Sequence record: NC_052660.1
Source: Escherichia phage tuntematon
Reading direction: 5' to 3' (one strand)
Length of the DNA stretch: 64,000 nt
Positions within the stretch are counted from its first letter, which is position 1. Each line of letters opens with the position of its first letter. Below are positions 1,857 through 32,960 of the stretch, piece after piece. Position numbers and translations under genes: made by a program. The notes beneath the pieces were generated by a model. It searched no databases. It saw nothing but the letters and a program-made list of their open reading frames with translations, and was not told the DNA's origin.

Positions 1857-1862
1857 AACTTA

Positions 1863-1886
1863 AAGGCGCACTTTGCGCCTTTTTTG
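1863..1886 (+). terminator. rho-independent terminator
   Basis: GC-rich hairpin AAGGCGCA-ctt-TGCGCCTT followed by TTTTTT, directly after the stop of the 468-1856 ORF. Confidence 0.65.
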
Positions 1887-1956
1887 ATTTTCCTCAAAGC
1901 TTTTTTCGGTTAGAAGAGGTAGAATAATAGTTCTACTCACAAAATAAGGATTAATA

Positions 1957-3771
1957 ATGAAAGATTTGTACCAAGATGTTTTTTCTTTTTTAGATCGCAC
2001 TTCAGAAACATACACTAGAGAGAATGCAAACAAACCTTCCCACCTCGTTAACACGCATAGGGATCTCTTGGCGGGGATTTTAAGCAAACATATGGCAATG
2101 ATACAGATACTGCCAAAAAACTTGTCAGAATGGCATACAGAAGGTTTTGGACATATTCACGACTTGGATTATCTGCTCTCTCCTCTTACAAACTGTTGTC
2201 TTGTTAATTATCAAGATATGTTAGAAAATGGTTTTAAGATCGGTGCTGCACAGATAGAAAAACCAAAATCTATTGGAGTAGCTACCACAGTGCTAACTCA
2301 AATCATCCAAGCTGTTGCCTCCAGTCAGTATGGAGGTCAAACGTGTGCACACATTGATAAAGGGCTTAGTCCTTATGTTGAAGCTAGTTTCCTTAAAAAC
2401 ATGGAGATAACCAAACGTCGCTACGGTTGTTATGCAAGGAAAGAAGCCCTAGAAATGACAGAACAAGATGTATATGATGCTATGCAAACTCTCTTGTATC
2501 AGGTTAATACTTTAATGAGTGTTAATGGACAATCTCCTTTTATTACAATCAGTATGGGTCTGGATACCTCTGTTTTTGGCAGAATGATCACAGCCAACTA
2601 TCTTAAAGTGCATAGTAACGGTCTAGGCAAAGATCATGTAACGCCTGTATTCCCTAAAGTTATTTTCTTTTTACAAGAAGGTGTTAACATGAAACCTAGT
2701 GATCCTAACTATGACCTTAAGCAACAAGCTTTGGCATGTTGTGCTGATCGTATTTATCCAGATTTTATTTCTGTTCCTTTGAACAAAGAAGTTACGGGAT
2801 CAGCAGATGGTACTGTTACGAGTATGGGTTGTCGTTCCTTTTTGTCGTACTATGCCACCGAACAAGGAGAAAAATATGATGGACGATTCAACCTTGGAGT
2901 AGTTTCTATCAACTTGCCTCTGATTGCTGCGGAAGCGAGAAGTAAAGGAGAATCTTTCACCTACCTCCTTAATAAACATATGGAGATAGCCTACGATGCT
3001 CACATGCTACGTGTAAACCGTATTAGACATACCAAAGCATCTGAAAACCCTATTCTTTTCATGGAAGGGGCTTTAGCGCGTTTAAATGCCAATGATGAAA
3101 TTGGTGTTTTGTTTGAAGATGGTTATGCTTCTATTAGTATTGGTTATGTAGGTCTTGCCGAAGCTTTGGAAATCCTTTATCCAGAAGAAAAAGATAAAAA
3201 GGAACTTGGTAAAAGCATTCTGCAACATATGAAAGATGTGTGTGCTGTGTTTAAAGAACGATCTAAGCTGGCGTTTAGTCTCTATGGAACTCCAGCAGAA
3301 TCCTTGTGCTATAAGTTTGCAACAGCTTTAAATAAAAAATACCCAGGTTTGGTAGAAAGAGACTATCTTACTAACTCTTTTCATCAACCTGTATGGTTGG
3401 TAACAAATCCTTTTGAAAAATGGGATTATGAAGCAGGTTTTGCACAGATTAGTAATGGTGGTAACATAAGTTATGTCGAAACACCAAACTTAAAGAATAA
3501 CTTAGAAGCTTTGGAGACTTTAGTAGACTACGCTTATGAACATATTCACTATTTTGGTATTAATCAGCCCGTGGATCAATGCTTTAAGTGTGGTTTTCAT
3601 GGAGAATTTAAGGCAACGGCTAAAGGGTTTGAGTGTCCTGATTGTGGCAACCATGAAGAAGAAACTATTTCTGTAGTTAGACGTGTATCAGGGTATCTTT
3701 CTGCCCCTAATTCACGGCCTTACAACAAAGGTAAAATGCAGGAAGTTTTGCAAAGGGAGAAACATCTTTGA
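1957..3771 (+). CDS. nrdD: anaerobic ribonucleoside-triphosphate reductase (class III RNR)
   Basis: 604 aa; C-terminal Cys4 zinc ribbon (CFKCGF...CPDCGN) followed by a glycyl-radical motif (RRVSGYLS), both typical of NrdD. Confidence 0.9.
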   Translation: MKDLYQDVFSFLDRTSETYTRENANKPSHLVNTHRDLLAGILSKHMAMIQILPKNLSEWHTEGFGHIHDLDYLLSPLTNCCLVNYQDMLENGFKIGAAQIEKPKSIGVATTVLTQIIQAVASSQYGGQTCAHIDKGLSPYVEASFLKNMEITKRRYGCYARKEALEMTEQDVYDAMQTLLYQVNTLMSVNGQSPFITISMGLDTSVFGRMITANYLKVHSNGLGKDHVTPVFPKVIFFLQEGVNMKPSDPNYDLKQQALACCADRIYPDFISVPLNKEVTGSADGTVTSMGCRSFLSYYATEQGEKYDGRFNLGVVSINLPLIAAEARSKGESFTYLLNKHMEIAYDAHMLRVNRIRHTKASENPILFMEGALARLNANDEIGVLFEDGYASISIGYVGLAEALEILYPEEKDKKELGKSILQHMKDVCAVFKERSKLAFSLYGTPAESLCYKFATALNKKYPGLVERDYLTNSFHQPVWLVTNPFEKWDYEAGFAQISNGGNISYVETPNLKNNLEALETLVDYAYEHIHYFGINQPVDQCFKCGFHGEFKATAKGFECPDCGNHEEETISVVRRVSGYLSAPNSRPYNKGKMQEVLQREKHL

Positions 3772-4238
3772 ATTTTGCAGGATATGAACCTGTAGATCTT
3801 ATTAATGGTGAGGGAGTTAGGTGCTCCCTCTGGGTTAGTGGTTGTAGCCACGGTTGTCGTGGCTGTTTTAACCAAAAAGCCTGGTCTTATTCTTATGGGA
3901 AACCGTTCACTCACGAAAATGTAGAGCAAGTTTTAAAAGATTTGTCAAGACCGTTTGTAAAAGGTTTAACAATTTTAGGAGGAGAGCCATTAGATCCACA
4001 GAATATTTACAATGTTAAAAACCTTATAGAAAAGGTTAGAGACGTTTATGGGTCAAGCAAAGATATAATGGTGTATACAGGGTATACTTTTGAGGAAGTG
4101 CCTTTGTATATTAAAAATCTTGTTGACATTATTGTAGACGGAAAGTATGAAATAAACAATCCAACTACAAAACCTTTCAGAGGGTCAGATAATCAAAGAT
4201 TATGGACCAAAACGGCAAGTGGTTGGCAATCAGATTAA
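3768..4238 (+). CDS. nrdG: anaerobic RNR activating protein (radical SAM)
   Basis: 156 aa; N-terminal RCSLWVSGCSHGCRGCFNQKAW closely matches the NrdG CxxxCxxC cluster; TTG start overlaps the nrdD stop (TTGA). Confidence 0.9.
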   Translation: MNFAGYEPVDLINGEGVRCSLWVSGCSHGCRGCFNQKAWSYSYGKPFTHENVEQVLKDLSRPFVKGLTILGGEPLDPQNIYNVKNLIEKVRDVYGSSKDIMVYTGYTFEEVPLYIKNLVDIIVDGKYEINNPTTKPFRGSDNQRLWTKTASGWQSD

Positions 4239-4251
4239 CTTAGGAGGTTTC

Positions 4252-4443
4252 ATGGTTACATATTTTGCTGTAGGAGATAGAGTAGGGACGGCAGGAGAAC
4301 TTTTGAAGAACAGTGATCGGGACGTTAAGGACATTCTTGCAACCCTTGTGGATATTTTACAAAGAAAAGAGTTGCTTTCTGATCGAGATGTTGCTAAATT
4401 ACTTGATATCGGAGGAGATGAACTTCAAAGACTTCCATTTTAA
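4252..4443 (+). CDS. hypothetical small protein
   Basis: ATG at 4252 after TAGGAGG; same frame as track ORF 4219-4443. Confidence 0.35.
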   Translation: MVTYFAVGDRVGTAGELLKNSDRDVKDILATLVDILQRKELLSDRDVAKLLDIGGDELQRLPF

Positions 4444-4458
4444 GTGAGGAGATAAGTA

Positions 4459-5064
4459 ATGCAACATAGTGTAGTAGTCAACATGCCGAATAGTGGGGAT
4501 AAATCTTTTGGTGTTCCTGCTAAAAAAGTGTGGAAAGCCCATTTTCATCTTACTTTATCTAACGTTAGTTCTGAAGAGTTGATGAAAGCAGCTAAGATTA
4601 TTGGTGCCAAATGCACAACAATTGATTTACATCGGGATACAAAGTCTCAACGTGATCGTATGTTAACAAAGTATCAAAGCGATCTCGACACTACTTTAAT
4701 GTTGCAGTGTGTAGAAAAACTTGAGAATGCAGGTTTCAATGTTGTTCGTTACAAACTGGAACGAATGTTTAAACATGTTGCCTGTGTTCTTTTCATGGAT
4801 CTAAGTAAAGAAAATTACGGAGAAGTTCACATTAAGACTTCAGCAAGTGATCCCGAAGTAGAAACAAACTTCTTCCGTATTTCTTCTAATGCTGAAGAAA
4901 TTGATTACCGATTTTATAATGCTCGCTTATATTCCGCAGAAGATAAGTTGCGTTTCAATGAAGCGTATGATATGCTCTTGAACAGTGGGATACAGATAAA
5001 AGGCTACCACATAGAACAAGTGGTAGTGGACAGTAATCTTAACTTAGACGCATGGTGGGCTTAA
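4459..5064 (+). CDS. hypothetical protein (single HxTx motif; weak 2H-phosphoesterase resemblance)
   Basis: 201 aa; AHFHLTL contains one H-x-T-x motif; no convincing second motif. Confidence 0.45.
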   Translation: MQHSVVVNMPNSGDKSFGVPAKKVWKAHFHLTLSNVSSEELMKAAKIIGAKCTTIDLHRDTKSQRDRMLTKYQSDLDTTLMLQCVEKLENAGFNVVRYKLERMFKHVACVLFMDLSKENYGEVHIKTSASDPEVETNFFRISSNAEEIDYRFYNARLYSAEDKLRFNEAYDMLLNSGIQIKGYHIEQVVVDSNLNLDAWWA

Positions 5065-5065
5065 T

Positions 5066-5722
5066 ATGACTATTAAACATATCTCTTTTGATGTATGGAA
5101 CACACTGATCACAGCAAACTCCAATTACGCAGACATGCGAGCCTGGACTATCGCAAAATATGGAGATATTACGGAAGTTGAAGCAAGAGCAGCTTATAAA
5201 AAAATCAAAAAGGAACTGGATAATGCAGCACTTCAAGGCAAAGCCGAGTGTGCAGCATACGCCTGGGAAAGACTCGGTTCTGAACTTGGGATAACGCCTT
5301 GGAAGTCTGCAAAGCTTCGTTTCGAGTGTGAACAGTGGTTCCTTAAGTTTCCACCACACGTAGCCGTAGATCTGCCGATGTACTTGCTGTATCTTTCTGG
5401 GCGTTATGATTTGAGTATTAAGAGCAATACCAACTTCATATCAGGGGATATTCTGCGTCGTGCTTGTAAGTTTGATAGTTGGAATTGTTTTGAGTTCACC
5501 CATTTCTCGGATGAAGCTTTACTTTGTAAACCAGATCCGCGATTCTTTGCTCGCACGCTCACGTATTCTCCGATCCCTCTGTTAGGGCACGAAGTATTGC
5601 ACGTAGGCGATAGTGAAGAATATGATGGAAAATGTGTTGACTTAGGATTTAACTTCTGTCATATTAAGAACCCTAACGACTTACTAGAGAAACTTAAAAG
5701 AGGAGAAATTGTAAATGCGTAA
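5066..5722 (+). CDS. HAD-superfamily hydrolase/phosphatase
   Basis: N-terminal ISFDVWNTLI (HAD motif I, haloacid-dehalogenase-like DxxxTL variant), KPDPRFF (motif III lysine) and HVGDSEEYDG (motif IV). Confidence 0.65.
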   Translation: MTIKHISFDVWNTLITANSNYADMRAWTIAKYGDITEVEARAAYKKIKKELDNAALQGKAECAAYAWERLGSELGITPWKSAKLRFECEQWFLKFPPHVAVDLPMYLLYLSGRYDLSIKSNTNFISGDILRRACKFDSWNCFEFTHFSDEALLCKPDPRFFARTLTYSPIPLLGHEVLHVGDSEEYDGKCVDLGFNFCHIKNPNDLLEKLKRGEIVNA

Positions 5723-6542
5723 TCAAACTCAAATTTTTGCAAATAAATTTGATGACCTGGAAACTGCTACTTTTGATATCCAAGATTATTCAAAATTGAA
5801 ATTTGGTAGTAACCAAGCCGCGCGTCGTATGGGTAAAGAATTGGCACTTCAGTTTTTTGCTCAAGTGGCAATGAAACATATTGGGGAACAATTTGTTATC
5901 ATTCCTTCTCCTTACAACCATGTGCATAATGCTGCAACAATGATGACAGATCATTTTATTAATTACTTTAATATGTTGCAAGCACAATATGATCAAGGTC
6001 GTTCAGCAGAACTGGACATTATTCATCGTAAAGTTAGCTATATCAACGATTATGGTTTCTTGGATAAAGCTAGTCGTAAGAAACTTATTGATGGGGATAC
6101 ATTCTACTGTAACAAAGAATTCTGGGGGGATAAGAAGCTTGTATTCATTGATGATGTAAATATCACTGGAACGCATGAAGACAAACTGATTGAGATCCTT
6201 AATGAAAATCAAGTTAAAAATGATGTTTACTTCCTGTATTTTGCAAAATATGAAGGTAATCAAGCAGATACCGAAGCTAAACTGAATTTTAACTACATTA
6301 ATACACCGGAAGCGTTTGTTAAAATGATTAATGAAGAACGTGATGCACAGTGTCTTGTTCGTCCTATTAAGTATCTTATGGGCCAAAATCATGAAGACTT
6401 CAAAATCATTCTTAGCCAATTGCCACATTACTATGTAGAGCAACTTTTCTTTGGATGCTTGGGAGAAGGTTACAACCGAATTTCAAAGTATGCTGAAAAC
6501 TTTGAATTCTTGGATCGTTACACAAAACAACACATTCTGTAA
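5715..6542 (+). CDS. type I phosphoribosyltransferase (PRPP-binding) family protein
   Basis: KLVFIDDVNITGTHE fits the classical PRPP-binding signature (hydrophobic run, DD, then TG-T); start overlaps the upstream stop. Confidence 0.65.
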   Translation: MRNQTQIFANKFDDLETATFDIQDYSKLKFGSNQAARRMGKELALQFFAQVAMKHIGEQFVIIPSPYNHVHNAATMMTDHFINYFNMLQAQYDQGRSAELDIIHRKVSYINDYGFLDKASRKKLIDGDTFYCNKEFWGDKKLVFIDDVNITGTHEDKLIEILNENQVKNDVYFLYFAKYEGNQADTEAKLNFNYINTPEAFVKMINEERDAQCLVRPIKYLMGQNHEDFKIILSQLPHYYVEQLFFGCLGEGYNRISKYAENFEFLDRYTKQHIL

Positions 6543-6555
6543 TAAGGAGCTAAAA

Positions 6556-7029
6556 ATGCTTAAAATGAAAACAGGTAATCTTATTGATGCCGCTAAAGCA
6601 GGTGAAGTAACTGTTATTGCTCATTGTTGCAACTGTATGTGTAATATGGGGGCAGGTATTGCCCCACAAATCAAACGAGCATTTCCTTACGCATATGCAG
6701 CAGACTTAGACACAATGGCTGGTGATCAAAGTAAACTAGGTTGTTTTAGTTTAGGGGTGCCAGACGAACAATCAGACCCTTTGGTATATAATCTATACGG
6801 GCAATACCGTTACGGATACAATGCTAAAGGTCGTCAGTTGGACTATGATGCACTTTACGATGCACTAATAGCTATGGCTAACGATTTGCTTCTCCGTGAC
6901 CAAAAATGTAAGATCGGCTTACCTATGATTGGCGCTGGACATGCTGGAGGTAATTGGGCTATCATCCAAGTGATGATTGAAGAAACTTTAGTAAAAACAG
7001 GTCACGATGTGACTATTTATAAACTTTAA
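6556..7029 (+). CDS. macro domain (ADP-ribose-binding/processing) protein
   Basis: VIAHCCNCMCNMGAGIAPQIKRAFP resembles the macro-domain N-x6-GGGV-x2-AI motif; C-terminal IGLPMIGAGHAGGNW resembles the second glycine-rich phosphate-binding loop; AAGGAG RBS before the ATG at 6556. Confidence 0.6.
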   Translation: MLKMKTGNLIDAAKAGEVTVIAHCCNCMCNMGAGIAPQIKRAFPYAYAADLDTMAGDQSKLGCFSLGVPDEQSDPLVYNLYGQYRYGYNAKGRQLDYDALYDALIAMANDLLLRDQKCKIGLPMIGAGHAGGNWAIIQVMIEETLVKTGHDVTIYKL

Positions 7030-7041
7030 GAGGAGATTAGT

Positions 7042-7263
7042 ATGGGTGTTTTTGCAGGTATTGTTGCAGTGGTAAGCTTTTTTGTTATTGCTTTTATGCT
7101 TAGTTTGATTCCAGCTTGGTTACTGTTGCTGGCTTACAACTATGTTGCTGAAGTTATGGGTCATGCAGATATCACTGTCCCAGTAACCTTCTGGACCGTG
7201 GTTTGTGTTTCGTTTATTCTGGCTGTATTACGAGGAATCTTTTCCTCTCATTCAACAAAATAA
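7042..7263 (+). CDS. small membrane protein (two predicted TM helices)
   Basis: 73 aa, strongly hydrophobic; GAGGAG RBS. Confidence 0.5.
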   Translation: MGVFAGIVAVVSFFVIAFMLSLIPAWLLLLAYNYVAEVMGHADITVPVTFWTVVCVSFILAVLRGIFSSHSTK

Positions 7264-7265
7264 GT

Positions 7266-7293
7266 GTTGACATAGTTCTTAAAAAGAGTAAGA
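7266..7293 (+). promoter_or_regulatory. sigma70-like promoter upstream of the TerC-like gene
   Basis: TTGACA (7266-7271), 16-nt spacer, TAAGAT. Confidence 0.4.
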
Positions 7294-7306
7294 TATATCA
7301 CATGAA

Positions 7307-7325
7307 GCGGGGAATAGTTCCCCGC
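7307..7325 (+). promoter_or_regulatory. 5'-UTR stem-loop upstream of the TerC-like gene
   Basis: GCGGGGA-atagt-TCCCCGC hairpin between the promoter and the RBS; no downstream U-tract. Confidence 0.4.
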
Positions 7326-7342
7326 AAAGAGAGGAGAAAAGA

Positions 7343-8317
7343 ATGCAACTTGGTTTCCCAATTATTGATGTAGTTGTTTTAGTTGGTATTTTAGCATTGT
7401 CTATTGGTATTGATTTCTTTGGTCACAAAGAAAATAAAGAAATTTCATTCAAATCCGCAGTTGGTTGGTCGATCTTTTGGATTGGTGTATCATTAGCTTA
7501 TTATGGTTTTGTATACTTCCAACATGGTGCCGATTTTGCTAACTTGTTTTTAAGTGGATATGTGTTGGAAAAATCTTTGTCGGTAGATAACTTGGTAGTA
7601 TTTGTAGCAGTATTCGCAAGTTTTGGTATTAAAAGCACACACTTGCAGCACAAGATTCTACTTTGGGGTATTGCAGGTGCGATTGTCTTCCGAGGTGTGT
7701 TTGTAGCAGTAGGCACTTACTTGTTAAGTTTGGGCTGGTATGTTAATATCTTCTTCGGTGCGGTCATCCTTTTCTGTGCAGCTAAAATGGTATTTGCTGG
7801 AGATAATGACGCAGAAGTTGATTACTCTAAACACTGGGCTACCCGTATTGTTCGTAAACTGTTCCCTGTATCTAATAAAATGGATGGGGAGAAGTTCTTC
7901 ACAATCGAAAATGGTGTTCGTGTAGCAACTCCAGCTTTGGTTTGCGTATTCGTGATGGAAATGGTGGATGTAATCTTTGCAGTAGATTCGGTTCCAGCGG
8001 TGATCGCAGTGACACAAGAACCCCTGCTTGTATTCTCTTCGATGTTATGTGCAATCTTAGGTCTACGTGCTCTGTTCTTTGTTCTTAGTGTCGCACTGAA
8101 GTATCTGGTTCACTTGGAGAAAGCAGTTATTGTGGTTCTGGTGTTTGTAGGCGTTAAACTGATGTATCACCCGTTTGCAGAAACATTGCATGAGAAAATC
8201 AGTTTCCTGCCAGCACATATTGATCCAACTGTTAGTATGTATATCGTGCTTGGTACTTTGGCCCTTGGTGTTATTGCAAGCTTTATCTTCCCTGAAAAAG
8301 AAGAAGCTACTGTTTAA
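7343..8317 (+). CDS. terC: TerC-family integral membrane protein
   Basis: 324 aa polytopic membrane protein carrying both TerC hallmark motifs: EKSLSVDN and FAVDSVPAVIAVTQEP...AILGLRALFF. Confidence 0.88.
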   Translation: MQLGFPIIDVVVLVGILALSIGIDFFGHKENKEISFKSAVGWSIFWIGVSLAYYGFVYFQHGADFANLFLSGYVLEKSLSVDNLVVFVAVFASFGIKSTHLQHKILLWGIAGAIVFRGVFVAVGTYLLSLGWYVNIFFGAVILFCAAKMVFAGDNDAEVDYSKHWATRIVRKLFPVSNKMDGEKFFTIENGVRVATPALVCVFVMEMVDVIFAVDSVPAVIAVTQEPLLVFSSMLCAILGLRALFFVLSVALKYLVHLEKAVIVVLVFVGVKLMYHPFAETLHEKISFLPAHIDPTVSMYIVLGTLALGVIASFIFPEKEEATV

Positions 8318-8323
8318 TAAATG

Positions 8324-8348
8324 AGCCTCCTTCGGGAGGCTATTTTAT
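8324..8348 (+). terminator. rho-independent terminator after the TerC-like gene
   Basis: AGCCTCC-ttcg-GGAGGCT hairpin followed by ATTTTAT. Confidence 0.6.
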
Positions 8349-9942: not shown

Positions 9943-10533
9943 ATGCATACCGAGAGAGACTTGCAACTCTTGTGGTGGGAAGTGATGCAGGAAATAAAAG
10001 AAGATTTTCCTGTTTACTACAACATGTTACGTGAAGCAGGATATAAAGCTTGTGTTAGAAACAAAGTGAATAACTCTTTCGGTTGGTGCAACTACCGAGA
10101 TAAAATTGTTGTTGTAAATTGGCACTTGCATAAGAACTCCACAAGAGATATGATCGTGGATACAATGAAGCACGAAATTGCTCATGCTATTGATGGTTGT
10201 ATGGGTAAGTTTAGTAGGCACGGTGCTCATTGGCAAAAACTGGCAGCAGAATTAGGGGCTAATCCTAAAGCCACTTCCAAAGAGCCGTTGAACCACGAAT
10301 ATAAATATGTTCTTGTTCTGGTAGATAGGTTTGCGACAAGATGTGTTAGAGGTTATAATCGTAAACCTAATCGCATGTACCCAGGTAAGCAACCTAATAT
10401 GTGGTTGAAATCAGATAAAGAAGGGACCGAAGGAAAATTATGGTTGTATAAATGGGACGATTGGGTTAAAGTAGCTAAAGAGTACGGTGTTTCACCATAT
10501 ATAAGAGATGCAGAAGAGGAGAATGAAGAATGA
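9943..10533 (+). CDS. SprT-like zinc metallopeptidase-domain protein
   Basis: HEIAHAIDG...HGAHWQKLAAELG matches the SprT-like HExxH...HG..W pattern. Confidence 0.6.
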   Translation: MHTERDLQLLWWEVMQEIKEDFPVYYNMLREAGYKACVRNKVNNSFGWCNYRDKIVVVNWHLHKNSTRDMIVDTMKHEIAHAIDGCMGKFSRHGAHWQKLAAELGANPKATSKEPLNHEYKYVLVLVDRFATRCVRGYNRKPNRMYPGKQPNMWLKSDKEGTEGKLWLYKWDDWVKVAKEYGVSPYIRDAEEENEE

Positions 10534-11642
10534 CAAGTCCATTTTTAAAAGCAGCTACTGGTGGTCAGAAGAAGCCTGAAATGAGCGTATTTGCTGCAAC
10601 AACAGATGCAAGTAAATCTGTATTCGCTCCAAGCGTGTTAGATGCCAGTCCTGTTTATGCACCAGCGGCACCGCAAGAAGTTCCAGTTTTGCCTTCTATG
10701 ACCCGACAAGAGATCGAAGAGATTGGGGCAGAGGCAGGAACAACCTTGCGTTCCTTGAATGCCGAGGTATTAAAACATCAACGTAGTAATCAAGGCGATC
10801 AGATGAGTGAACGACTCACAGCTTTGATTAAACAGGCAAAACAACTTGATCCAAACTCTATTAAACAAAGCAAGGGTATTACTAAACTCATTAAAAAAGT
10901 TATGGGTATGAAAGAAGACCTGTTTGGGGAGTTTGATAATGTTAATAACCGTATTGAAGAGTTGGTAAAGAACCTTCAAATGGATATTCGCAAAGAAGAA
11001 GATTCCTTGGTATATCTTGAAAAGCTACATCAAGCTATTGGACAGTATGCTGCAAGTTTGAACCGAGATATGCAGCTTCTAACAGCAACCTATGAAAAAG
11101 AAGAACAAGCTTTGGCTGCTCTTCCAGAAGATGCAGTAGAACAGCGACAAGTGATCCGAGATACTTTGGATCTTCTGGAGATTCGTATTGCAGATTTAAA
11201 AGCATTGCGCCTACTGTGTGTCCAAATGGGACCGCGTGTACAAGGTATGCAAAAAGTTTCTGCAAGCTTAATGCGATCTGCGCGTAACATAGTAAATAAT
11301 GTTATTCCTGCTTACTCTGCTAACTTCTCAATGTATATCGAGAGCTTACGTCAAATGAAAGCAGCAGAGACGCAGAATAACGTTCTTGATGAATTTAACC
11401 TGGCAATTAAACTGGGTAGCGATCTTGCCACACAGAATCAGATCGAAGCAGCAGCACTGGCTAACCGTCAAGTGTTGGATATTGAAACTCTGCGTCACGA
11501 TCAGGAAAACTTGGTTAAGATGTTGGAAGAAACTAACCGCATCAATACGGAAGCCCGTGCTGCTCGTGTTGATTATATTAATGAAGTTCAATCTCTGGAA
11601 GACGGGATGGTAGCTGCTGTGAAACGAGGGCTTGGTAAATGA
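10530..11642 (+). CDS. coiled-coil protein, possible TelA-like (toxic anion resistance) protein
   Basis: 370 aa, largely helical with a low-complexity N-terminus; size and position between TerC and TerD genes fit TelA, but no diagnostic motif could be confirmed by eye. Confidence 0.3.
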   Translation: MTSPFLKAATGGQKKPEMSVFAATTDASKSVFAPSVLDASPVYAPAAPQEVPVLPSMTRQEIEEIGAEAGTTLRSLNAEVLKHQRSNQGDQMSERLTALIKQAKQLDPNSIKQSKGITKLIKKVMGMKEDLFGEFDNVNNRIEELVKNLQMDIRKEEDSLVYLEKLHQAIGQYAASLNRDMQLLTATYEKEEQALAALPEDAVEQRQVIRDTLDLLEIRIADLKALRLLCVQMGPRVQGMQKVSASLMRSARNIVNNVIPAYSANFSMYIESLRQMKAAETQNNVLDEFNLAIKLGSDLATQNQIEAAALANRQVLDIETLRHDQENLVKMLEETNRINTEARAARVDYINEVQSLEDGMVAAVKRGLGK

Positions 11643-13232: not shown

Positions 13233-14027
13233 ATGTCCGAGAAAATCAGCCTGAAAAAACGTCAAGAAAACCTTGCTTTCTCTCTGAAAAAGAATAAGAA
13301 CCTGAATGAAGGTAAGATTGTTCTTCGTGTAGCATGTGCTCTAGATATTTCTGGTAGTATGCATGGTCTATATTCTAGTGGGGTAGTGAGTGATTTTGTA
13401 GGTAAACTGCTTCCTTTTGGTATGCTGTTCGACGATAATCAACAAATTGATATGTGGGCCTTCAATACGAGTTCCCAAGAGCTTACTCCAGCAACAGCAG
13501 ATGTTTACGATGACTATGTTGGTAAATGTATGCGTAATGTTCGTATCGGAGGTGGAACAAATTACGCCCCTGTAATGGCAGATATCTACGATGAGTATTT
13601 TGGCACTGTTACCAAATATATTACCACTAAACAAGTGGTACAAGAGGAGGCTCCAAAGAAAGGCTTCTTTAATCGTCTGCTTGGTAAAACTGAAACAGTA
13701 TCTGTAGAGCGTGAAAAGGTTGTAGCTGTATCTGAACCAGGTGCTGACGTTACCCCTGGTGTTGTATTCTTCCAGACAGACGGTGAGAATGGTGATCCTA
13801 GTGCTGTTCGTCGTCTTATTGAAGAGAATAAGAATAAACCTATTTATTGGTTCATGGTTGGCGTTGGTAATGAGAAGTTTGGCTTCCTGAAAGAACTGGC
13901 AAATGCTTATGATAATGTTGGTTTTATTGGCATTAAAGATTTAGACTTGACAGATTCAGAGCTTTATGACAAACTCTTATCTGAAGAGTTCGGAGAGTGG
14001 GTTGTTAAAGTAGGTGCTAAAAAATGA
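13233..14027 (+). CDS. von Willebrand factor A domain protein (TerF/TerY-like)
   Basis: MIDAS motif VACALDISGSM and FFQTDGENGD; N-terminus MSEKISLKK...FSLKK resembles TerD-family N-termini. Confidence 0.75.
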   Translation: MSEKISLKKRQENLAFSLKKNKNLNEGKIVLRVACALDISGSMHGLYSSGVVSDFVGKLLPFGMLFDDNQQIDMWAFNTSSQELTPATADVYDDYVGKCMRNVRIGGGTNYAPVMADIYDEYFGTVTKYITTKQVVQEEAPKKGFFNRLLGKTETVSVEREKVVAVSEPGADVTPGVVFFQTDGENGDPSAVRRLIEENKNKPIYWFMVGVGNEKFGFLKELANAYDNVGFIGIKDLDLTDSELYDKLLSEEFGEWVVKVGAKK

Positions 14028-14537: not shown

Positions 14538-15140
14538 ATGACTGATAAAATTTCCCTGAAAAAAGGCTCTAGCGAAAAAATTTCCCTGAAGAAGGTTGCT
14601 CCGGCTCTGAAAGAACTGCGCCTGGAATTCTCTTGGAAGTCTGATTCTAAACTGGATCTGGATGTAAGTGCACTGGTTTGTCGTCACAATGCCGCTGGCA
14701 ATCCTGAAATGCTGTCTGCACGTCATCTTGTTTGCTATGCTAACAAGTTTGATCCTGAACGTTCTACCTTCGCTGGTGACGATGTTCGTGATGGCACTGG
14801 CAGCATGGAGCAGATTGATATTACTCTGGCTAAAATCTCTCCTGATGCACAAGAGATTGCCTTTGTTCTGACCATTGATGATGATACAGGTCTGAAACGT
14901 TTTGGTCATGCTTCTGAAGGTATGCTTAAAATCTTCGACTCCGAGCGCAATGTGGAAATTCTGGATTTTGACTTCCTGGCTCCTGAAGTAGCTGGTAACA
15001 CAATCTGCCACGTGGCTTCCTTGGTTCGTGAAGATGGAGAATGGAAGCTGAAAGCATATGGTGTAGGTAAAGCTGGTCTGGATATTTGTGATGTGGTGAT
15101 GGCCTTCGGTGGTAAAAAAGAATGGTATGAATGTCCGTAA
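14538..15140 (+). CDS. terD: TerD-family stress protein
   Basis: 200 aa; N-terminal duplicated KISLKKG..KISLKK and acidic GDDVRDGTGSMEQIDITLAKISPDAQEIAFVLTI segment match the TerD domain. Confidence 0.85.
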   Translation: MTDKISLKKGSSEKISLKKVAPALKELRLEFSWKSDSKLDLDVSALVCRHNAAGNPEMLSARHLVCYANKFDPERSTFAGDDVRDGTGSMEQIDITLAKISPDAQEIAFVLTIDDDTGLKRFGHASEGMLKIFDSERNVEILDFDFLAPEVAGNTICHVASLVREDGEWKLKAYGVGKAGLDICDVVMAFGGKKEWYECP

Positions 15141-23004: not shown

Positions 23005-25601
23005 TGAGTAAGTTTACATGGGATATTGAAGCAAACGGATTGTTGAATAATGACACTATTGATTATTTAGCTAGTCCTTATCGTCTCAAAGACACATTTC
23101 AAATGCACTGTATTGTCTTAGAGAACCATGAAACAGGAGAAATAGTAGCTTTCCACGATGGCCCTAAATACATCTTTGATGGGCGTCCTTATGAAGAGTC
23201 AGATGGTAAATACACATATGTTCTTAAAGAGTATGTGGCGCAAGATTACACACATTTTCAACTAAAAGATTTCCCAGATTTTATTAATCATGAAGGTTAT
23301 TTTAAAGACAAGCCTGAATATCTGGTTGAAATGGCTGTGGCTCACAACGGTATCAACTACGACTGGTTGGCTACAAAACTGTTTTATGGATTAGATTACA
23401 GTGTTAAATATAATACGTGGGGCAAAAATAAGGTAAAACTTATTGACTCCTTGATTTTGAGTAAAGTGTTAAACCCAGATCGAAAGATTGAGGGCAAATC
23501 AGGACATAGCTTGGCAGCACTTTCTCGAAAAGCAGGTGGTGATGTAAAAATAGATTTCCGTAAAGAGATTCCAGAAGAAGATCGATTTAAGACTTTTGCT
23601 GCGGATATGCTTTATTACTGTATCTATGACAACAAAGCCAATACGAGCGTATATAATTACCTTATGGAAGAATGGGGTGATTATGATAAATGGGAAGGTC
23701 CATTTGAACTTGAACAACGTGTAGCAGACATTATTACACGTCAGGAACACCGTGGATTTGCTTTTAACATGAAACAAGCAGAAGAGAACCTTGCTTTTTT
23801 GGATGCAGAAATGGAGCGTCTTCGTTTACTCGTTGAGCCTATTTTGCCACCTAAACCAGCAACAAAAGGTTATCTTAAGGCTTTTATTCCACCTAAGTTG
23901 CAAATTAAAAAGAACTTAGAGCCAACTAACCATATGATCAATTTTGCTAAGAAACATGATGGTCATTTGGAAGAGAGGGATGGCGATTGGTGGTTAGTTA
24001 TGTTGGGGAAAGAGTGGAAACTGCCAGTTGCAGCAGATGAACCTCTATGTGATCCTAACATTCCTGCAACATTGAACGATACAACCCATATTAAAAACTG
24101 GCTTGTAGGATTAGGTTGGGTACCATCTGAATATAAAGATAAAGACTTGACTCTTAAATCTGGCACCAAGATTAAAAAGAGCGAGGAAGAACTTCAGAAA
24201 GGTATTCGAGCTTACGTTGAGCAAACTCTATCTTCTAATTTTTGTCAGGATCGTTGTGATCATCTGGAGTGCACACCGGAAACCCTGGAAAGGAAGATTC
24301 AAGAGCGTATAGCAAAAGGTAAAGGTCGCGGTCTTAAAGTATTGACTAACCCATGTTTTACCAAAGGTCAGGAAAAAGAAATTTGTCCTAACCTGCAAGC
24401 TTTGGGTGAGAAGTTTCCTTATGCTACACAGATTGTAGAATACTTAACGTATAAGCATCGTAGGAACTCTATTTTAGGTGGCGGTGCTGATTGGGAAGAA
24501 GATGAAGAAGATCAAGAATACGATAAAGGTTTCTTAGCCGCAGTAAGGGCGGATGGGCGTATTCCTACCCCAGCCGCTACATGTGATGCTGCAACCTCTC
24601 GTATGAAGCATAGATCTGTAGCTAATATTCCTCGTGTCACATCTTTGTTTGGATGGGAGATGCGTAACTTGTTTGGTGTAGAGGTTCCTAAATACTTCCA
24701 GATCGGCTACGATTTCGACTCTTTGGAAGCAAAAATTGAATCACACTACTGTTGGCGGTACGAGCCGGAGCCACACGAATATTGTAACGCTCTGTTGTTA
24801 GAGAAACCTAACGATGTTCACACAATGATGGCAAAACGTATCACTGAAACTATTGGACGTAAATTTGAACGTAGTCCTGCTAAATCTGTTAAGTATGGTA
24901 TTACCTATGGTGCACAAGCCGACAAGGTTGCTAAAACAATTGGTAGCGATAAGTTTACAGGTCAATTGGTGTTTGATGCTTTCTGGGAAGCTGCATTCCC
25001 ATTGGCGCGTCTTAAAGAACGTTTAAACGATTTCTGGGTTAAGACTGGTAAACAATATGTTTTGGGTATTGACGGTCGTAAGGTTCCTACTCGTTCTGCT
25101 CACGCGATTCTTAACTCTCTATTCCAAAGCGGCGGGGTTATCTGTGCTAAACGTGCAATGGTTATTTATGACGACATGATCGAAGAAGAAGGGCTAAGTG
25201 TTGACTTCTTTAAAGATGACTGGAAGAATAAAGACTTCGTGCAACAAATGATCGCATATCACGATGAAGCCCAGCTTGAAGTTTCTCGTAACCTTGTAGA
25301 ATTTAAATGGTTTTCACCTGAATCATTAGGTTGGAAGAAAGTAGACGATCCTGAAGAACAAAAGAAAATTGATAAAGAATGCCTTGCTAAAGTTGAAGAA
25401 TGGAAGCATAATAAGGAAAAAGAGACGGGACAAATTTGGGCTAACATTCATGAATCTCCCAAAGGTGGATGGTTTACAGCCTATAGTCGGGCAGGTGAAC
25501 TTGCTGCTTTAGCTGTTACTAAGGCTGGAGAATTTTACAATCTTAATGTTCAGCTTACTGCCGGATATGATGTGGGTAACTCCTGGGCGTCCTGTCACTA
25601 G
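23004..25601 (+). CDS. DNA polymerase, family A, with 3'-5' exonuclease domain
   Basis: 865 aa; Exo I (FTWDIEANGL); Pol A motif A-like (DFDSLEAKI), motif B (RSPAKSVKYGITYGA) and motif C (AYHDEAQLEV). Confidence 0.88.
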   Translation: MSKFTWDIEANGLLNNDTIDYLASPYRLKDTFQMHCIVLENHETGEIVAFHDGPKYIFDGRPYEESDGKYTYVLKEYVAQDYTHFQLKDFPDFINHEGYFKDKPEYLVEMAVAHNGINYDWLATKLFYGLDYSVKYNTWGKNKVKLIDSLILSKVLNPDRKIEGKSGHSLAALSRKAGGDVKIDFRKEIPEEDRFKTFAADMLYYCIYDNKANTSVYNYLMEEWGDYDKWEGPFELEQRVADIITRQEHRGFAFNMKQAEENLAFLDAEMERLRLLVEPILPPKPATKGYLKAFIPPKLQIKKNLEPTNHMINFAKKHDGHLEERDGDWWLVMLGKEWKLPVAADEPLCDPNIPATLNDTTHIKNWLVGLGWVPSEYKDKDLTLKSGTKIKKSEEELQKGIRAYVEQTLSSNFCQDRCDHLECTPETLERKIQERIAKGKGRGLKVLTNPCFTKGQEKEICPNLQALGEKFPYATQIVEYLTYKHRRNSILGGGADWEEDEEDQEYDKGFLAAVRADGRIPTPAATCDAATSRMKHRSVANIPRVTSLFGWEMRNLFGVEVPKYFQIGYDFDSLEAKIESHYCWRYEPEPHEYCNALLLEKPNDVHTMMAKRITETIGRKFERSPAKSVKYGITYGAQADKVAKTIGSDKFTGQLVFDAFWEAAFPLARLKERLNDFWVKTGKQYVLGIDGRKVPTRSAHAILNSLFQSGGVICAKRAMVIYDDMIEEEGLSVDFFKDDWKNKDFVQQMIAYHDEAQLEVSRNLVEFKWFSPESLGWKKVDDPEEQKKIDKECLAKVEEWKHNKEKETGQIWANIHESPKGGWFTAYSRAGELAALAVTKAGEFYNLNVQLTAGYDVGNSWASCH

Positions 25602-30935: not shown

Positions 30936-32960
30936 TTATCGTGTTACAACAACCATGTCCACGATATCACCCACACCAGGATACGTTAATTGCAAAATTG
31001 TTACTGCGTTAGCAGTAGTTGCTATTTCTGTATCATTTAGTGCTCCATAAGACGCATCTAGTGTAACCGTGTGTCCCGTTGTATCTTGAATCAAATAAAT
31101 CATTGCTGAAAACGCTTTAGGTTTTGTAGAGCCAGTGACACCAGGCCATGCTCCAACTGTCAGAGCGTCAGTTACTGTAACAACATACATATTGGAAGTT
31201 CCAGAAGGAGTCCAAGATGCTCCAGAGTTGGCAGTAGTTGTTTCAAGTTCCATGAAACCTGCTGTAACTTTAGTTGGTGTTATAGCTTCCGTAGGATCTG
31301 ATCCTGATATTTCGATCCAGTTTCCATCAGAACGACCATACGTCAAGCCGTCTTGAGGGGCTTCTGGTATACTAGGAAGAGTTCCTATAAGTGTCCACGT
31401 AGAAGAATCTGTTTTCTTAAACACTGCTCCAGTGGTAGTATTGAAGGCGTAATCATTGATAACACCGTCTCCTGCGACTGGATTAGTTGTTGCTACAAAC
31501 CATTGTGCGCCGTCCTTACCGTTGGTCCCATTAGTACCATTGGTTCCGTTTGCTCCTGGATCACCTTTCTCACCTTTATCTCCCTTCTCGCCTTTGTCAC
31601 CTTTAATACTCCCCATGTCAACAAAAGATGCGGAATTGGTGTCTTGATCATAAGTATAGATGTAAAGATTACTGGTGTCTTCAGTTAAATAAGCATCGCC
31701 ATAGTTATTATAAACGGGGAGAGCTTCTCCATTTGCAACATGACCTTTAGCTGTAATAGATCTACCACCCAAACTACCCACATTGAGCCACGTTTGATTG
31801 TCGTCGATCCACACGTAAAGGTCATTTTTTACAATGTAGGCATCACCAACCTCCGCTACAGACGGTAGTTCTGAAACATCTGACAATTCGCCATTTACAG
31901 AAAGACCTGCACCAACCGGACCTTGGATACCTTGAACACCCTGTTCACCTTGTGGACCAGGATCTCCCTTATCTCCTTTGTCCCCCTTCTCTCCTTTTAA
32001 GGAAGCAACAAAATCTACTTCTGTCCCTTCATTACCAGCATCCAGCCAACTTTGATATGCAGATTTCCCTTCGTCTCCATCTGTTCCATCTAGACCGTCT
32101 TTACCTGCCTCACCTTGTGGACCTTGAGGACCAACAATATTACCCATGTTGACCCAAGCTGTCCCATTAGAGACATAAAGATTGCCATTGATAGAATAAG
32201 CTTGGCTTACGTTTTCAGAGTTAGGTTGTGGTAAGTTACTTGTAGAAGGCAAATCCCCACGATAATCAAAACCGTTGGCGTTAACACCAGGTGCTCCCTG
32301 TGGCCCTGTAGGACCAACATCGCCTTTATCGCCTTTTATAGAGGTAAGAAAATCATAAACAGACCCTGTATTACCATCTGCCAACCATACCTCGTAAGCT
32401 GATTTACCTTCTGGCCCAAGAGAAGAAATAAGTTTCCAAACAGAACCATCCCAAGCGTAAATCACATCACCTACAATATAACCATCCCCTGCAACGTTAC
32501 CTGTAGATGGTAGTTCACTAGTGCTTGCTAATGATCCTTTAATATTAAGTTGAGCACCAGTATCCCCTTTCAAAGAGGCAAGCCATTGTGCTTCTGTTCC
32601 AACAAAACCATTATCAAGTGCGATCTGATAAGCCGATTTACCAGCTTCAGGTATTGTTTCCGACAGATCATCAATCTGTTGCTGCACTGCCGTAAACTTG
32701 GCATTGATAATTGCTATATCATCAGCGGTCCCAACACTTTGCCATGCAAGGGAAGAAATACCACCTGTGGTGGCTGGCGTAGAGTTTGCTGGAACTACTT
32801 TAGGAAAAGTTCCTTTCCATTGGTAATAATTCCCTTCTGCTGCTAACAGCAAAACTTCACGGGAATTACGTAATGTAAAACCTGCCTCAAAGCTGCGACG
32901 TTTTCGATAAGTAGCTTCTACCAGATCGGCTATCGCACTATTAGGTCTTGTTAAATTCAT
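30936..32960 (-). CDS. tail fibre protein with collagen-like G-X-Y blocks and phage tail-fibre repeats
   Basis: 674 aa; several G-X-Y runs (e.g. GEKGDKGDKGDPGPQGEQGVQGIQGPVG) interleaved with three copies of a KSAY[QE]xWL..GN.G....F..S.KG module typical of phage tail-fibre repeats. Confidence 0.7.
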   Translation of the reverse strand: MNLTRPNSAIADLVEATYRKRRSFEAGFTLRNSREVLLLAAEGNYYQWKGTFPKVVPANSTPATTGGISSLAWQSVGTADDIAIINAKFTAVQQQIDDLSETIPEAGKSAYQIALDNGFVGTEAQWLASLKGDTGAQLNIKGSLASTSELPSTGNVAGDGYIVGDVIYAWDGSVWKLISSLGPEGKSAYEVWLADGNTGSVYDFLTSIKGDKGDVGPTGPQGAPGVNANGFDYRGDLPSTSNLPQPNSENVSQAYSINGNLYVSNGTAWVNMGNIVGPQGPQGEAGKDGLDGTDGDEGKSAYQSWLDAGNEGTEVDFVASLKGEKGDKGDKGDPGPQGEQGVQGIQGPVGAGLSVNGELSDVSELPSVAEVGDAYIVKNDLYVWIDDNQTWLNVGSLGGRSITAKGHVANGEALPVYNNYGDAYLTEDTSNLYIYTYDQDTNSASFVDMGSIKGDKGEKGDKGEKGDPGANGTNGTNGTNGKDGAQWFVATTNPVAGDGVINDYAFNTTTGAVFKKTDSSTWTLIGTLPSIPEAPQDGLTYGRSDGNWIEISGSDPTEAITPTKVTAGFMELETTTANSGASWTPSGTSNMYVVTVTDALTVGAWPGVTGSTKPKAFSAMIYLIQDTTGHTVTLDASYGALNDTEIATTANAVTILQLTYPGVGDIVDMVVVTR
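31510..32350 (-). repeat. collagen-like triplet-repeat coding blocks (four G-X-Y runs)
   Basis: Nucleotide-level 9-bp periodic repeats encoding G-X-Y triplets at roughly 31510-31610, 31915-32000, 32070-32150 and 32285-32350. Confidence 0.6.

Follow-up and report, generated by a model that had tools for sequence, protein, structure and literature searches.

Escherichia phage tuntematon carries genes for a HAD-superfamily hydrolase, a type I phosphoribosyltransferase (PRTase) and a macro domain protein in tandem next to genes of the Ter family, raising the question of whether these proteins serve one pathway or are separate functions that share a gene block. The locus occupies positions 4459-7029 of a 64,000-nucleotide stretch of the phage genome (NC_052660.1; hereafter the window), and opens with a fourth gene that encodes a 201-residue protein, which we call p201. 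A sequence-only reading of the window had treated the HAD, PRTase and macro proteins as a single trio coupled to Ter. Our analysis gives moderate support to a different answer, that 4459-7029 combines, as a mosaic within one gene block, three modules that are independent of each other and nucleotide-centred: it is better read, in order, as an orphan AbiEi-like gene, a Ter-type HAD-PRTase_3 cassette, and an orphan DarG-like macro gene. Two of these modules have already been described in phages, while the AbiEi-like p201 is a new lead.

The locus is 99.4% identical to that of Escherichia phage phAPEC8, and the window belongs to Phapecoctavirus. At least 80% of 4459-7029 is covered in 69 phage records, nearly all of them from Stephanstirmvirinae (hereafter the subfamily). 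All four open reading frames (ORFs) were confirmed on the plus strand, each with a Shine-Dalgarno sequence. The p201 stop codon ends at 5064 and the HAD gene starts at 5066; the HAD and PRTase genes overlap by 8 nt (ATGCGTAA, 5715-5722), and the macro ATG at 6556 is preceded by AAGGAG. These junctions indicate tight coupling of the four genes.

To place the locus in a wider context, we searched collections of proteins, viral contigs and genomes for loci with PRTase_3 relatives, and scored their ORFs with profiles built on the window proteins. A single-sequence scan of viral contigs gave only one close relative, and an alignment-based scan was needed. The resulting set holds 8 subfamily loci, 15 viral loci outside the subfamily (mostly on phage contigs of 50-500 kb) and 4 bacterial or plasmid loci, with neighbour co-occurrence scored inside 8-10 kb flanks. 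A HAD gene of the same HAD subfamily lies directly upstream of PRTase_3 in all of them (8/8, 15/15 and 4/4), either overlapping it or at a spacing of roughly 25-170 nt that reaches ~480 nt in one locus (L020). Of the 15 other viral loci, 8 have at least one of TerC, TerD, TelA and vWA-TerF within the flanks; in the window all four lie within 9 kb of the cassette. A Ter locus in a Haliea metagenome-assembled genome has the same pair at its end: TerC/DUF475, TerD, three vWA genes (one with TerY_C), PP2C and a second TerD are followed by HAD and PRTase_3. The proposed link between PRTase/HAD genes and Ter genes is thus borne out: large, unrelated phages, and likewise a bacterial Ter locus, have the pair beside TerC, TerD, TelA and vWA-TerF. 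Because the pair also occurs without Ter genes, as on an Akkermansiaceae chromosome and the Rhizobium plasmid pRL10, we regard the cassette as a self-contained unit that is frequently but not always Ter-associated.

In 2012, Anantharaman, Iyer and Aravind reportedly predicted a Ter-linked biosynthetic module whose product would be a nucleoside-like metabolite. The HAD-PRTase_3 cassette is that module. It shares with the module of 2012 and of Iyer et al. (2021) a PRTase_3 and HAD pair adjoining TerC, TerD, TelA and vWA-TerF, which also occurs in a bacterial TerD/TerY/PP2C locus; it differs in lacking an ATP-grasp enzyme or HpcH/TIM-barrel lyase, in having a DxWxT rather than a DxDxT motif in the HAD protein, and in being sometimes Ter-free. 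No Pfam match to an ATP-grasp or HpcH/TIM-barrel lyase was found in ORFs 8-475 and 468-1856 or in the other window ORFs tested; no such partner appears in the Pfam lists of six further loci (L003-L005, L032-L034), or beside the cassette in any phage locus examined. Iyer et al. 2021 (PMC7824862) had already described phage Ter systems that include PRTase and HAD genes, in Acinetobacter phage ME3 and ‘smaller tailed phages’, and proposed a role in superinfection exclusion for such systems. The bacterial biosynthetic cluster of Ter systems was still a prediction only as of a 2021 study (PMC8115787). Capture of the cassette from a host Ter island was considered and rejected: because enterobacterial Ter plasmids lack PRTase_3 and cassette-type HAD homologs, the phage module was not copied from such an island, and the only plasmids bearing these homologs are from Rhizobium, Sinorhizobium and Hymenobacter. 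Three points appear to extend beyond the earlier Ter papers: the lack of an ATP-grasp/HpcH partner in phages, the lack of an enterobacterial-plasmid homolog, and a HAD motif I of the form D-x-[W/Y]-x-T.

The fold calls of the sequence-only reading for the HAD, PRTase and macro proteins all hold, on profile matches, PDB sequence matches and motifs. ORF 5715-6542 has the PRTase fold and matches PF15610 (PRTase_3) with an E-value of 4.5e-42 (144.7 bits against a cutoff of 28.7). It contains a phosphoribosyl pyrophosphate (PRPP)-binding loop, LVFIDDVNITGTHE, with a hydrophobic run, DD and TG-T, and residues D146, D147, T151, G152, T153, H154 and E155 are invariant across 25 homologs. A literature search found no biochemically characterised member of the PRTase_3 family; by homology, the enzyme would use PRPP to modify an acceptor. 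The PRTase domain of the competence protein ComF/ComFC (PDB 7p0h) is a distant relative with ~9% sequence identity, from which phage PRTase_3 differs in having no zinc finger, a C-terminal helical extension of roughly 90 residues, and another genomic context.

The HAD protein falls below its Pfam cutoff (21.2 against 26.4 bits), and is supported by matches to the TIGR DREG-2 model (2.4e-8) and PDB 2om6 (7.6e-5). The sequence-only reading had listed HAD motifs I, III and IV; in fact motifs I-IV are all kept in 17 cassette HADs (FD8VWNT, SNTNF, KPD and HVGDS..D, giving the motif I Asp, motif II Ser/Thr, motif III Lys and motif IV acidic pair), but motif I is DxWxT and its second Asp is missing. 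Every cassette HAD, from phages and bacteria alike, has D-x-[W/Y]-x-T here, with Trp or Tyr at the +2 position instead of Asp, a form that resembles PDB 2om6 and the DxYxT of dehalogenases. In HAD phosphatases the Asp at +2 is the general acid/base, while dehalogenases lack it. Because this residue is missing, the name ‘phosphatase’ is an assumption for the cassette HAD.

Some cassettes have surroundings of another kind. On two large phage contigs with T4-family genes (L032:8967-10562 and L033:5152-6555), the HAD-PRTase_3 pair sits beside a gene for a DUF2828/DUF7788 protein and RNA ligase genes, not beside Ter genes. DUF2828 proteins are, we presume, vWA-related, and the one in these loci may take the place of the Ter vWA protein in function. 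In a further phage (L003:10810-14612), a YqeY-like gene directly follows PRTase_3, with genes for a PnuC-type nicotinamide mononucleotide (NMN) transporter and an AAA_28 protein (read as NadR-like) 2-3 kb farther on; a YqeY gene recurs at L032:15473-15907, ~6.7 kb downstream of that cassette. In these other phages the cassette may have NAD-related genes as neighbours.

The macro gene behaves differently from the cassette. Its family spans 2,978 of 50,697 phage records against 155 for PRTase_3, a roughly 20-fold wider spread. The gene follows PRTase_3 only in Stephanstirmvirinae-type loci, at times with one inserted gene between them, and lies within the flanks of the cassette in just 1 of the 15 viral loci outside the subfamily. 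Together with the finding that characterised macro relatives are stand-alone or NARP1-linked counter-defence enzymes, these distributions speak against HAD, PRTase and macro as one trio. The protein narrowly passes the Pfam cutoff for PF01661 (22.9 bits against 22), and its matches to PDB sequences include SCO6735 (5e3b, 1.9e-12), DarG (5m31, 1.2e-6) and TARG1 (4j5r, 4.9e-6), and a weak match to yeast Poa1p (6lfu, E 0.0036). It is 36% identical to T4 Tk.4 over 124 aligned residues (BLASTP E 1e-20, tblastn E 1e-12); both proteins match the PADLOC DarG model (2.7e-10 and 1.3e-9, respectively), and N26 of the window protein aligns with N22 of TaqDarG.

Three recent reports bear on what such a protein does. 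In T4, tk.4 is the single gene needed on DarTG2 hosts, has been named adfM, and sensitises the phage to DarTG2 when knocked out (preprint 10.1101/2025.11.20.689424). A chimallivirus macro protein that is likewise called AdfM (PhiKZ gp104, with a Lys at K78) strips DarT2 ADP-ribose from DNA (PMC13309987). In the NARP1-AP pathway, the macro protein Adpp is an ADP-ribose (ADPR)-1''-phosphate phosphatase that acts against aRES, yielding ADPR from ADPR-1''P for NAD reconstitution (preprint 10.64898/2026.01.28.702374). The window protein shares with T4 Tk.4 a stand-alone architecture of ~155 residues, the conserved Asn, glycine-rich loops, the match to the PADLOC DarG model and a Gln at the position of DarG K80. 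It differs from the PhiKZ protein in having Gln for the K78 Lys, and from AdfM in sitting in a Ter/ribonucleotide reductase gene block. Because the window protein is homologous to genetically characterised relatives, we favour a counter-defence, AdfM-like role, in which this stand-alone member of the T4 Tk.4 family would be an ADP-ribose hydrolase and most likely strip DarT2-type ADP-ribose from phage DNA; coupling to the PRTase and HAD proteins is unlikely. Given what is known of these relatives, the suggestion that the trio reverses ADP-ribosylation fits the macro gene alone and not the trio.

A live alternative, possible though clearly the less favoured, is that the macro protein is an Adpp-like ADPR-1''-phosphate phosphatase with an anti-aRES or other small-molecule role, not a DNA de-ADP-ribosylase. 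The two belong to the same macro family: a 40%-identical protein (E 2e-28) from Vibrio phage Thalassa is encoded between Adps and Namat, which makes it a closer relative of the window protein than T4 Tk.4 is. The Poa1p match, and the absence of the catalytic Lys of DarG and TARG1, point the same way. Yet phAPEC8 differs from the phages that carry Adpp in having no NARP1 pathway to feed: a search of its whole genome, comprising the window and three further segments, found no homolog of Adps or Namat (tblastn E > 0.1), and NARP1 and NARP2 were not found, so any ADPR made could not be returned to NAD. Gln at the position of the missing Lys is common to the window protein, T4 Tk.4, SCO6735 and BT1257, and T4 Tk.4 still protects against DarTG2. 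Macro domains are, moreover, often promiscuous, and both activities may coexist in one protein.

The p201 family has 256 members, found in a profile search of 1.84 billion cluster representatives, and in 31 diverse members residues H30, T32, T70, R97, K99, E101, E122, H124, K126, S142, N144, E186, D191, D197 and W200 are invariant, a pattern that resembles that of an enzyme. The invariant His, Lys, Arg and Glu residues fall on predicted beta-strands. The single HxTx motif that the sequence-only reading had picked out in this protein is present, but it forms part of an invariant HxHxT motif, and a second invariant motif, ExHxK, accompanies it. A 2H phosphoesterase assignment was rejected, as p201 does not show the two H-x-T/S-x motifs and LigT-like fold of that class. 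The protein instead matches the PADLOC AbiEi models PDLC02277 and PDLC02279 (4.7e-13 and 4.4e-12, over residues 29-200), as do all 31 diverse members along their full length. In bacteria the family holds the antitoxin position of AbiE type IV toxin-antitoxin systems, upstream of AbiEii genes. The best-matching member, P0288 (hhalign probability of 96.2% to the phage p201 family), is encoded directly upstream of an AbiEii gene with a 4-nt overlap, beside bacterial tex; on a Streptomyces rimosus plasmid, the homolog WP_003983302 likewise lies upstream of an annotated AbiEii/AbiGii toxin gene with a 4-nt overlap.

No AbiEii (PF08843) gene adjoins p201 in the phage, and because the next phage gene is HAD, this copy is an orphan. 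None of the 15 cassette loci from outside the subfamily has p201, and phi92-type relatives lack it but retain the HAD, PRTase and macro genes; it also occurs in phages of Rheinheimera, a genus absent among the PRTase_3 matches listed. A canonical winged-helix AbiEi (COG5340) was ruled out, with no Pfam match at E <= 0.1 and no PDB match to the family profile. We conclude that p201 is an orphan version of a partner of AbiEii nucleotidyltransferase toxins, non-canonical and probably catalytic, and that it most likely serves counter-defence. In this it follows the same logic as the phage orphan antitoxins AdfN (PMC11825919) and AdfM, each a lone copy in a phage, and the enzyme-like set of invariant residues points to catalytic reversal, not to the transcriptional or steric antagonism of a winged-helix AbiEi. 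A literature search found no paper describing a p201-type orphan AbiEii partner.

Could p201 instead be a hydrolase or sponge for nucleotide signals or alarmones, such as those of CBASS, Thoeris or (p)ppGpp-type signaling, with the AbiEii link unrelated? We judge this doubtful, although not negligible. Some family members are fused to an N-terminal NUDIX or RelA/SpoT-type HD_4 domain, one phage homolog overlaps an Acb1 gene, and the invariant residues on predicted beta-strands would suit such an enzyme; set against this, the family occupies the antitoxin position in AbiEii operons in two independent bacterial lineages, and the PADLOC AbiEi models are themselves built from it.

Two further observations concern the surroundings of p201. 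On a 110-kb phage contig (L036:6001-7021), the p201 homolog overlaps a gene for the anti-CBASS protein Acb1, and a NADAR gene (10545-10976) lies 4 kb downstream; the Acb1/p201/NADAR group looks like an anti-defence gene cluster. A gene for a Sir2-family protein is found at 24129-24929 of phAPEC8, and a SIR2 gene lies 5 kb from the p201 homolog on another phage contig (L037:11286-12035).

From these data, we propose a model with three parts. The HAD and PRTase_3 genes form a fixed two-gene cassette, the part of the locus tied to the phage Ter genes TerC, TelA, vWA-TerF and TerD. That association is observed; for the chemistry, we infer that PRTase_3 joins PRPP to a base-like nucleophile to give a 5'-phosphoribosyl compound, and that the coupled HAD protein acts through Asp8 on the phosphate of this compound to release a nucleoside-like small molecule. 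In infected cells this molecule would work together with the membrane-associated Ter complex, perhaps to bring about superinfection exclusion. The macro protein would independently protect phage DNA from DarT2-type modification in the manner of AdfM. Finally, p201 would represent an orphan homolog of an enzyme-like antitoxin that is paired in bacteria with AbiEii nucleotidyltransferase toxins, most likely neutralising or reversing AbiE-type abortive infection, a role we assign on homology and on the genomic context of its homologs.

Several observations weigh against this mosaic. The cassette lacks a nearby Ter gene in 5 of the 15 viral loci and in 3 of the 4 bacterial or plasmid loci, and the co-occurrence counts cover 8-10 kb flanks and not whole genomes. 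The four genes keep their order within the subfamily and the stretch from 1882 to 8324 is free of strong terminator-like hairpins, so co-expression and functional coupling are possible; plausibly, all four proteins handle ribose-phosphate or nucleotide chemistry. The cassette HAD lacks the general acid/base Asp expected in a phosphatase. The macro protein has Gln83 where DarG (K80) and TARG1 (K84) have a catalytic Lys, and the Thalassa macro protein, which is closer to it than T4 Tk.4 (102 against 70 bits), is an integral step of a pathway that includes a PRTase-fold enzyme (Adps-macro-Namat). The chemistry of the PRTase_3/HAD pair and the activities of p201 and the macro protein are, besides, our own inferences.

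Some of these points would suit a single Ter-coupled pathway in which p201, HAD, PRTase_3 and the macro protein act in series to make or trim a ribosylated nucleotide-like molecule that the TerC/TerD complex senses or exports. Beyond the conserved order and the hairpins that bound the block, the overlap of the HAD and PRTase genes, the fusions of p201 relatives to NUDIX or HD nucleotide hydrolases, and the ability of macro domains to remove a ribose 1''-phosphate all fit such a series. We nevertheless consider it improbable: outside the subfamily the macro gene is absent at 14 of 15 cassette loci and p201 at all 15, phi92-type relatives do without p201, the macro and p201 families are both widespread without PRTase_3, and both have bacterial antitoxin counterparts (DarG and the AbiEii partner, respectively). 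More speculative still is the idea that p201 founds a new phage class of counter-defence enzymes, orphan catalytic antitoxins that reverse AbiEii/MenT-type nucleotidylation, and that p201 and the macro gene bracket the Ter cassette because all three answer one host stress pathway, with the PRTase_3/HAD product as a coordinating signal or decoy nucleoside acting with the Ter membrane complex; we give this little credence. Least probable of all is a NARP-like salvage trio, in which the macro protein converts ADPR-1''-phosphate or a similar compound and PRTase_3/HAD rebuilds NAD precursors: the Thalassa macro gene does stand between Adps and Namat in an operon type that returns ADPR for NAD reconstitution, but phAPEC8 shows no Adps or Namat homolog for the salvage of NAD breakdown products that had been suggested for this locus, the cassette goes with Ter genes and in most loci has no macro gene near it, the nicotinamide PRTases known so far belong to type II and not type I, and a phosphatase acting on NMN would counter NAD synthesis.

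Table 1. Features of the window in and around the p201-to-Ter region
Feature	Position	Strand	Remarks
Terminator-like hairpin	1862..1882	+	9 bp stem, T-run; proposed upstream limit of NrdD-to-TerC block
p201, 201-aa protein (phAPEC8 gp047)	4459..5064	+	Enzyme-like family labelled AbiEi by PADLOC; orphan, no adjoining AbiEii gene
HAD-superfamily hydrolase	5066..5722	+	Atypical motif I FDVWNT, no Asp at +2; first gene of Ter-linked cassette
Type I phosphoribosyltransferase PRTase_3 (ComF-like)	5715..6542	+	C-terminal helical extension; second cassette gene
Stand-alone macro domain, phage Tk.4/Poa1p-like family (AdfM/Adpp relatives)	6556..7029	+	N26 conserved; Gln83 at DarG K80 position
tm73, 73-aa predicted membrane protein	7042..7263	+	Hydrophobic sequence; kept between macro and TerC only within the subfamily
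Sigma-70-like promoter TTGACA-16-TAAGAT	7267..7294	+	Before TerC; same place as phAPEC8-annotated ‘host-dependent promoter’
TerC-family integral membrane protein	7343..8317	+	Pfam TerC 9.9e-39
Terminator-like hairpin	8324..8341	+	Directly 3' of TerC; proposed downstream limit of block
TelA-like protein, dispersed phage Ter module	10530..11642	+	Pfam TelA 3.2e-33
vWA-TerF-like protein, Ter module	13233..14027	+	Pfam vWA-TerF-like 1.6e-37
TerD-family protein, Ter module	14538..15140	+	TerD annotation in phage SKA64; matches PF02342-bearing ORFs in L003 and L004

The genes around the locus follow one another on the plus strand (Table 1), beginning with a mini class II aminoacyl-tRNA synthetase (aaRS)-like gene cut by the window start, a 462-codon ORF, NrdD, NrdG and an ORF of 63-74 codons (p74), continuing through p201, HAD, PRTase, macro, the predicted membrane protein tm73 and TerC, and reaching genes for SprT-like, TelA, vWA-TerF-like and TerD proteins farther downstream. 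The two strongest terminator-like hairpins of the first 16 kb are those that flank the NrdD-to-TerC segment, with no strong terminator-like hairpin found between 1882 and 8324, and NrdD, NrdG, p74, p201, HAD, PRTase, macro, tm73 and TerC are probably one co-transcribed block. With these hairpins and the promoter before TerC, co-transcription is plausible; shared function does not follow from it. A perfect 8-bp hairpin (GCGGGGAA-TAG-TTCCCCGC) with no T-run behind it occupies positions 7307-7325, after the TerC promoter and before the Shine-Dalgarno sequence of TerC, and is possibly a stabiliser of the 5' untranslated region or a regulatory element; no riboswitch was found before TerC, Rfam giving no match at gathering score across the whole window, this hairpin included.

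The two ORFs at the start of the window had been proposed as the missing ATP-grasp or lyase partners of the cassette, and our results argue against this role. ORF 8-475 amounts to the final 155 codons of a 185-codon gene cut by the window edge, and matches phrog_4806 (‘histidyl tRNA synthetase’, 2.3e-59). The 185-residue protein (L001:7460-8017; phAPEC8 31932-32504) shows, by reading, the class II aaRS-like motifs YVASAEQSF, LTPCYRTE and GLELGSFG.R. Its gene is annotated as a histidyl- or seryl-tRNA synthetase, and phAPEC8 gp181 is a second gene so annotated; the 185-residue protein is far too short for a real synthetase. Sequence searches with ORF 468-1856 (462 residues) gave no Pfam, NCBIfam or PDB match and nothing that points to an ATP-grasp or TIM-barrel fold. 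Two similar segments in it follow the pattern V.V.F.dG.tD.g.a..FtW, and several records annotate it as ‘ribonucleotide reductase’, a label that probably spread from its position beside NrdD. Neither ORF travels with the cassette outside the subfamily, and the hairpin at 1862-1882 separates both from the NrdD-TerC block; on these grounds and the sequence searches, we rule them out as ATP-grasp/TIM-barrel partners.

Other features were noted in passing. Within 9943-11642, an SprT-like ORF (so annotated in phage SKA64, with an HEIAH motif) ends 4 nt inside the TelA gene; this SprT-TelA pair is kept in several subfamily loci, and SprT is missing in L008, L009 and L011. In a phi92-type relative (L008:5177-7296), the NrdD frame is split into two ORFs ~250 nt apart, which could reflect a frameshift, an intron or an assembly error; the frame is intact in L011. 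The sign of the GC skew changes near 28 kb of the window, a switch we take to mark the change from plus-strand to minus-strand genes.

The function of Ter and of its predicted nucleoside-like metabolite has been a standing question since 2012. The coliphage family described here carries a stripped-down Ter set of TerC, TerD, TelA, vWA, HAD and PRTase_3, with no ATP-grasp enzyme or lyase, and although the association itself has already been published, growth of these phages on E. coli K-12 makes them convenient for the metabolomics and genetics of Ter. The missing Asp at +2 urges caution against a plain phosphatase label for the HAD partner of PRTase_3. If p201 is confirmed as an orphan AbiEii partner, AbiE would join DarTG1 (through AdfN) and DarTG2 (through AdfM) among the toxin-antitoxin defences met by phages with antitoxin-like genes of their own.

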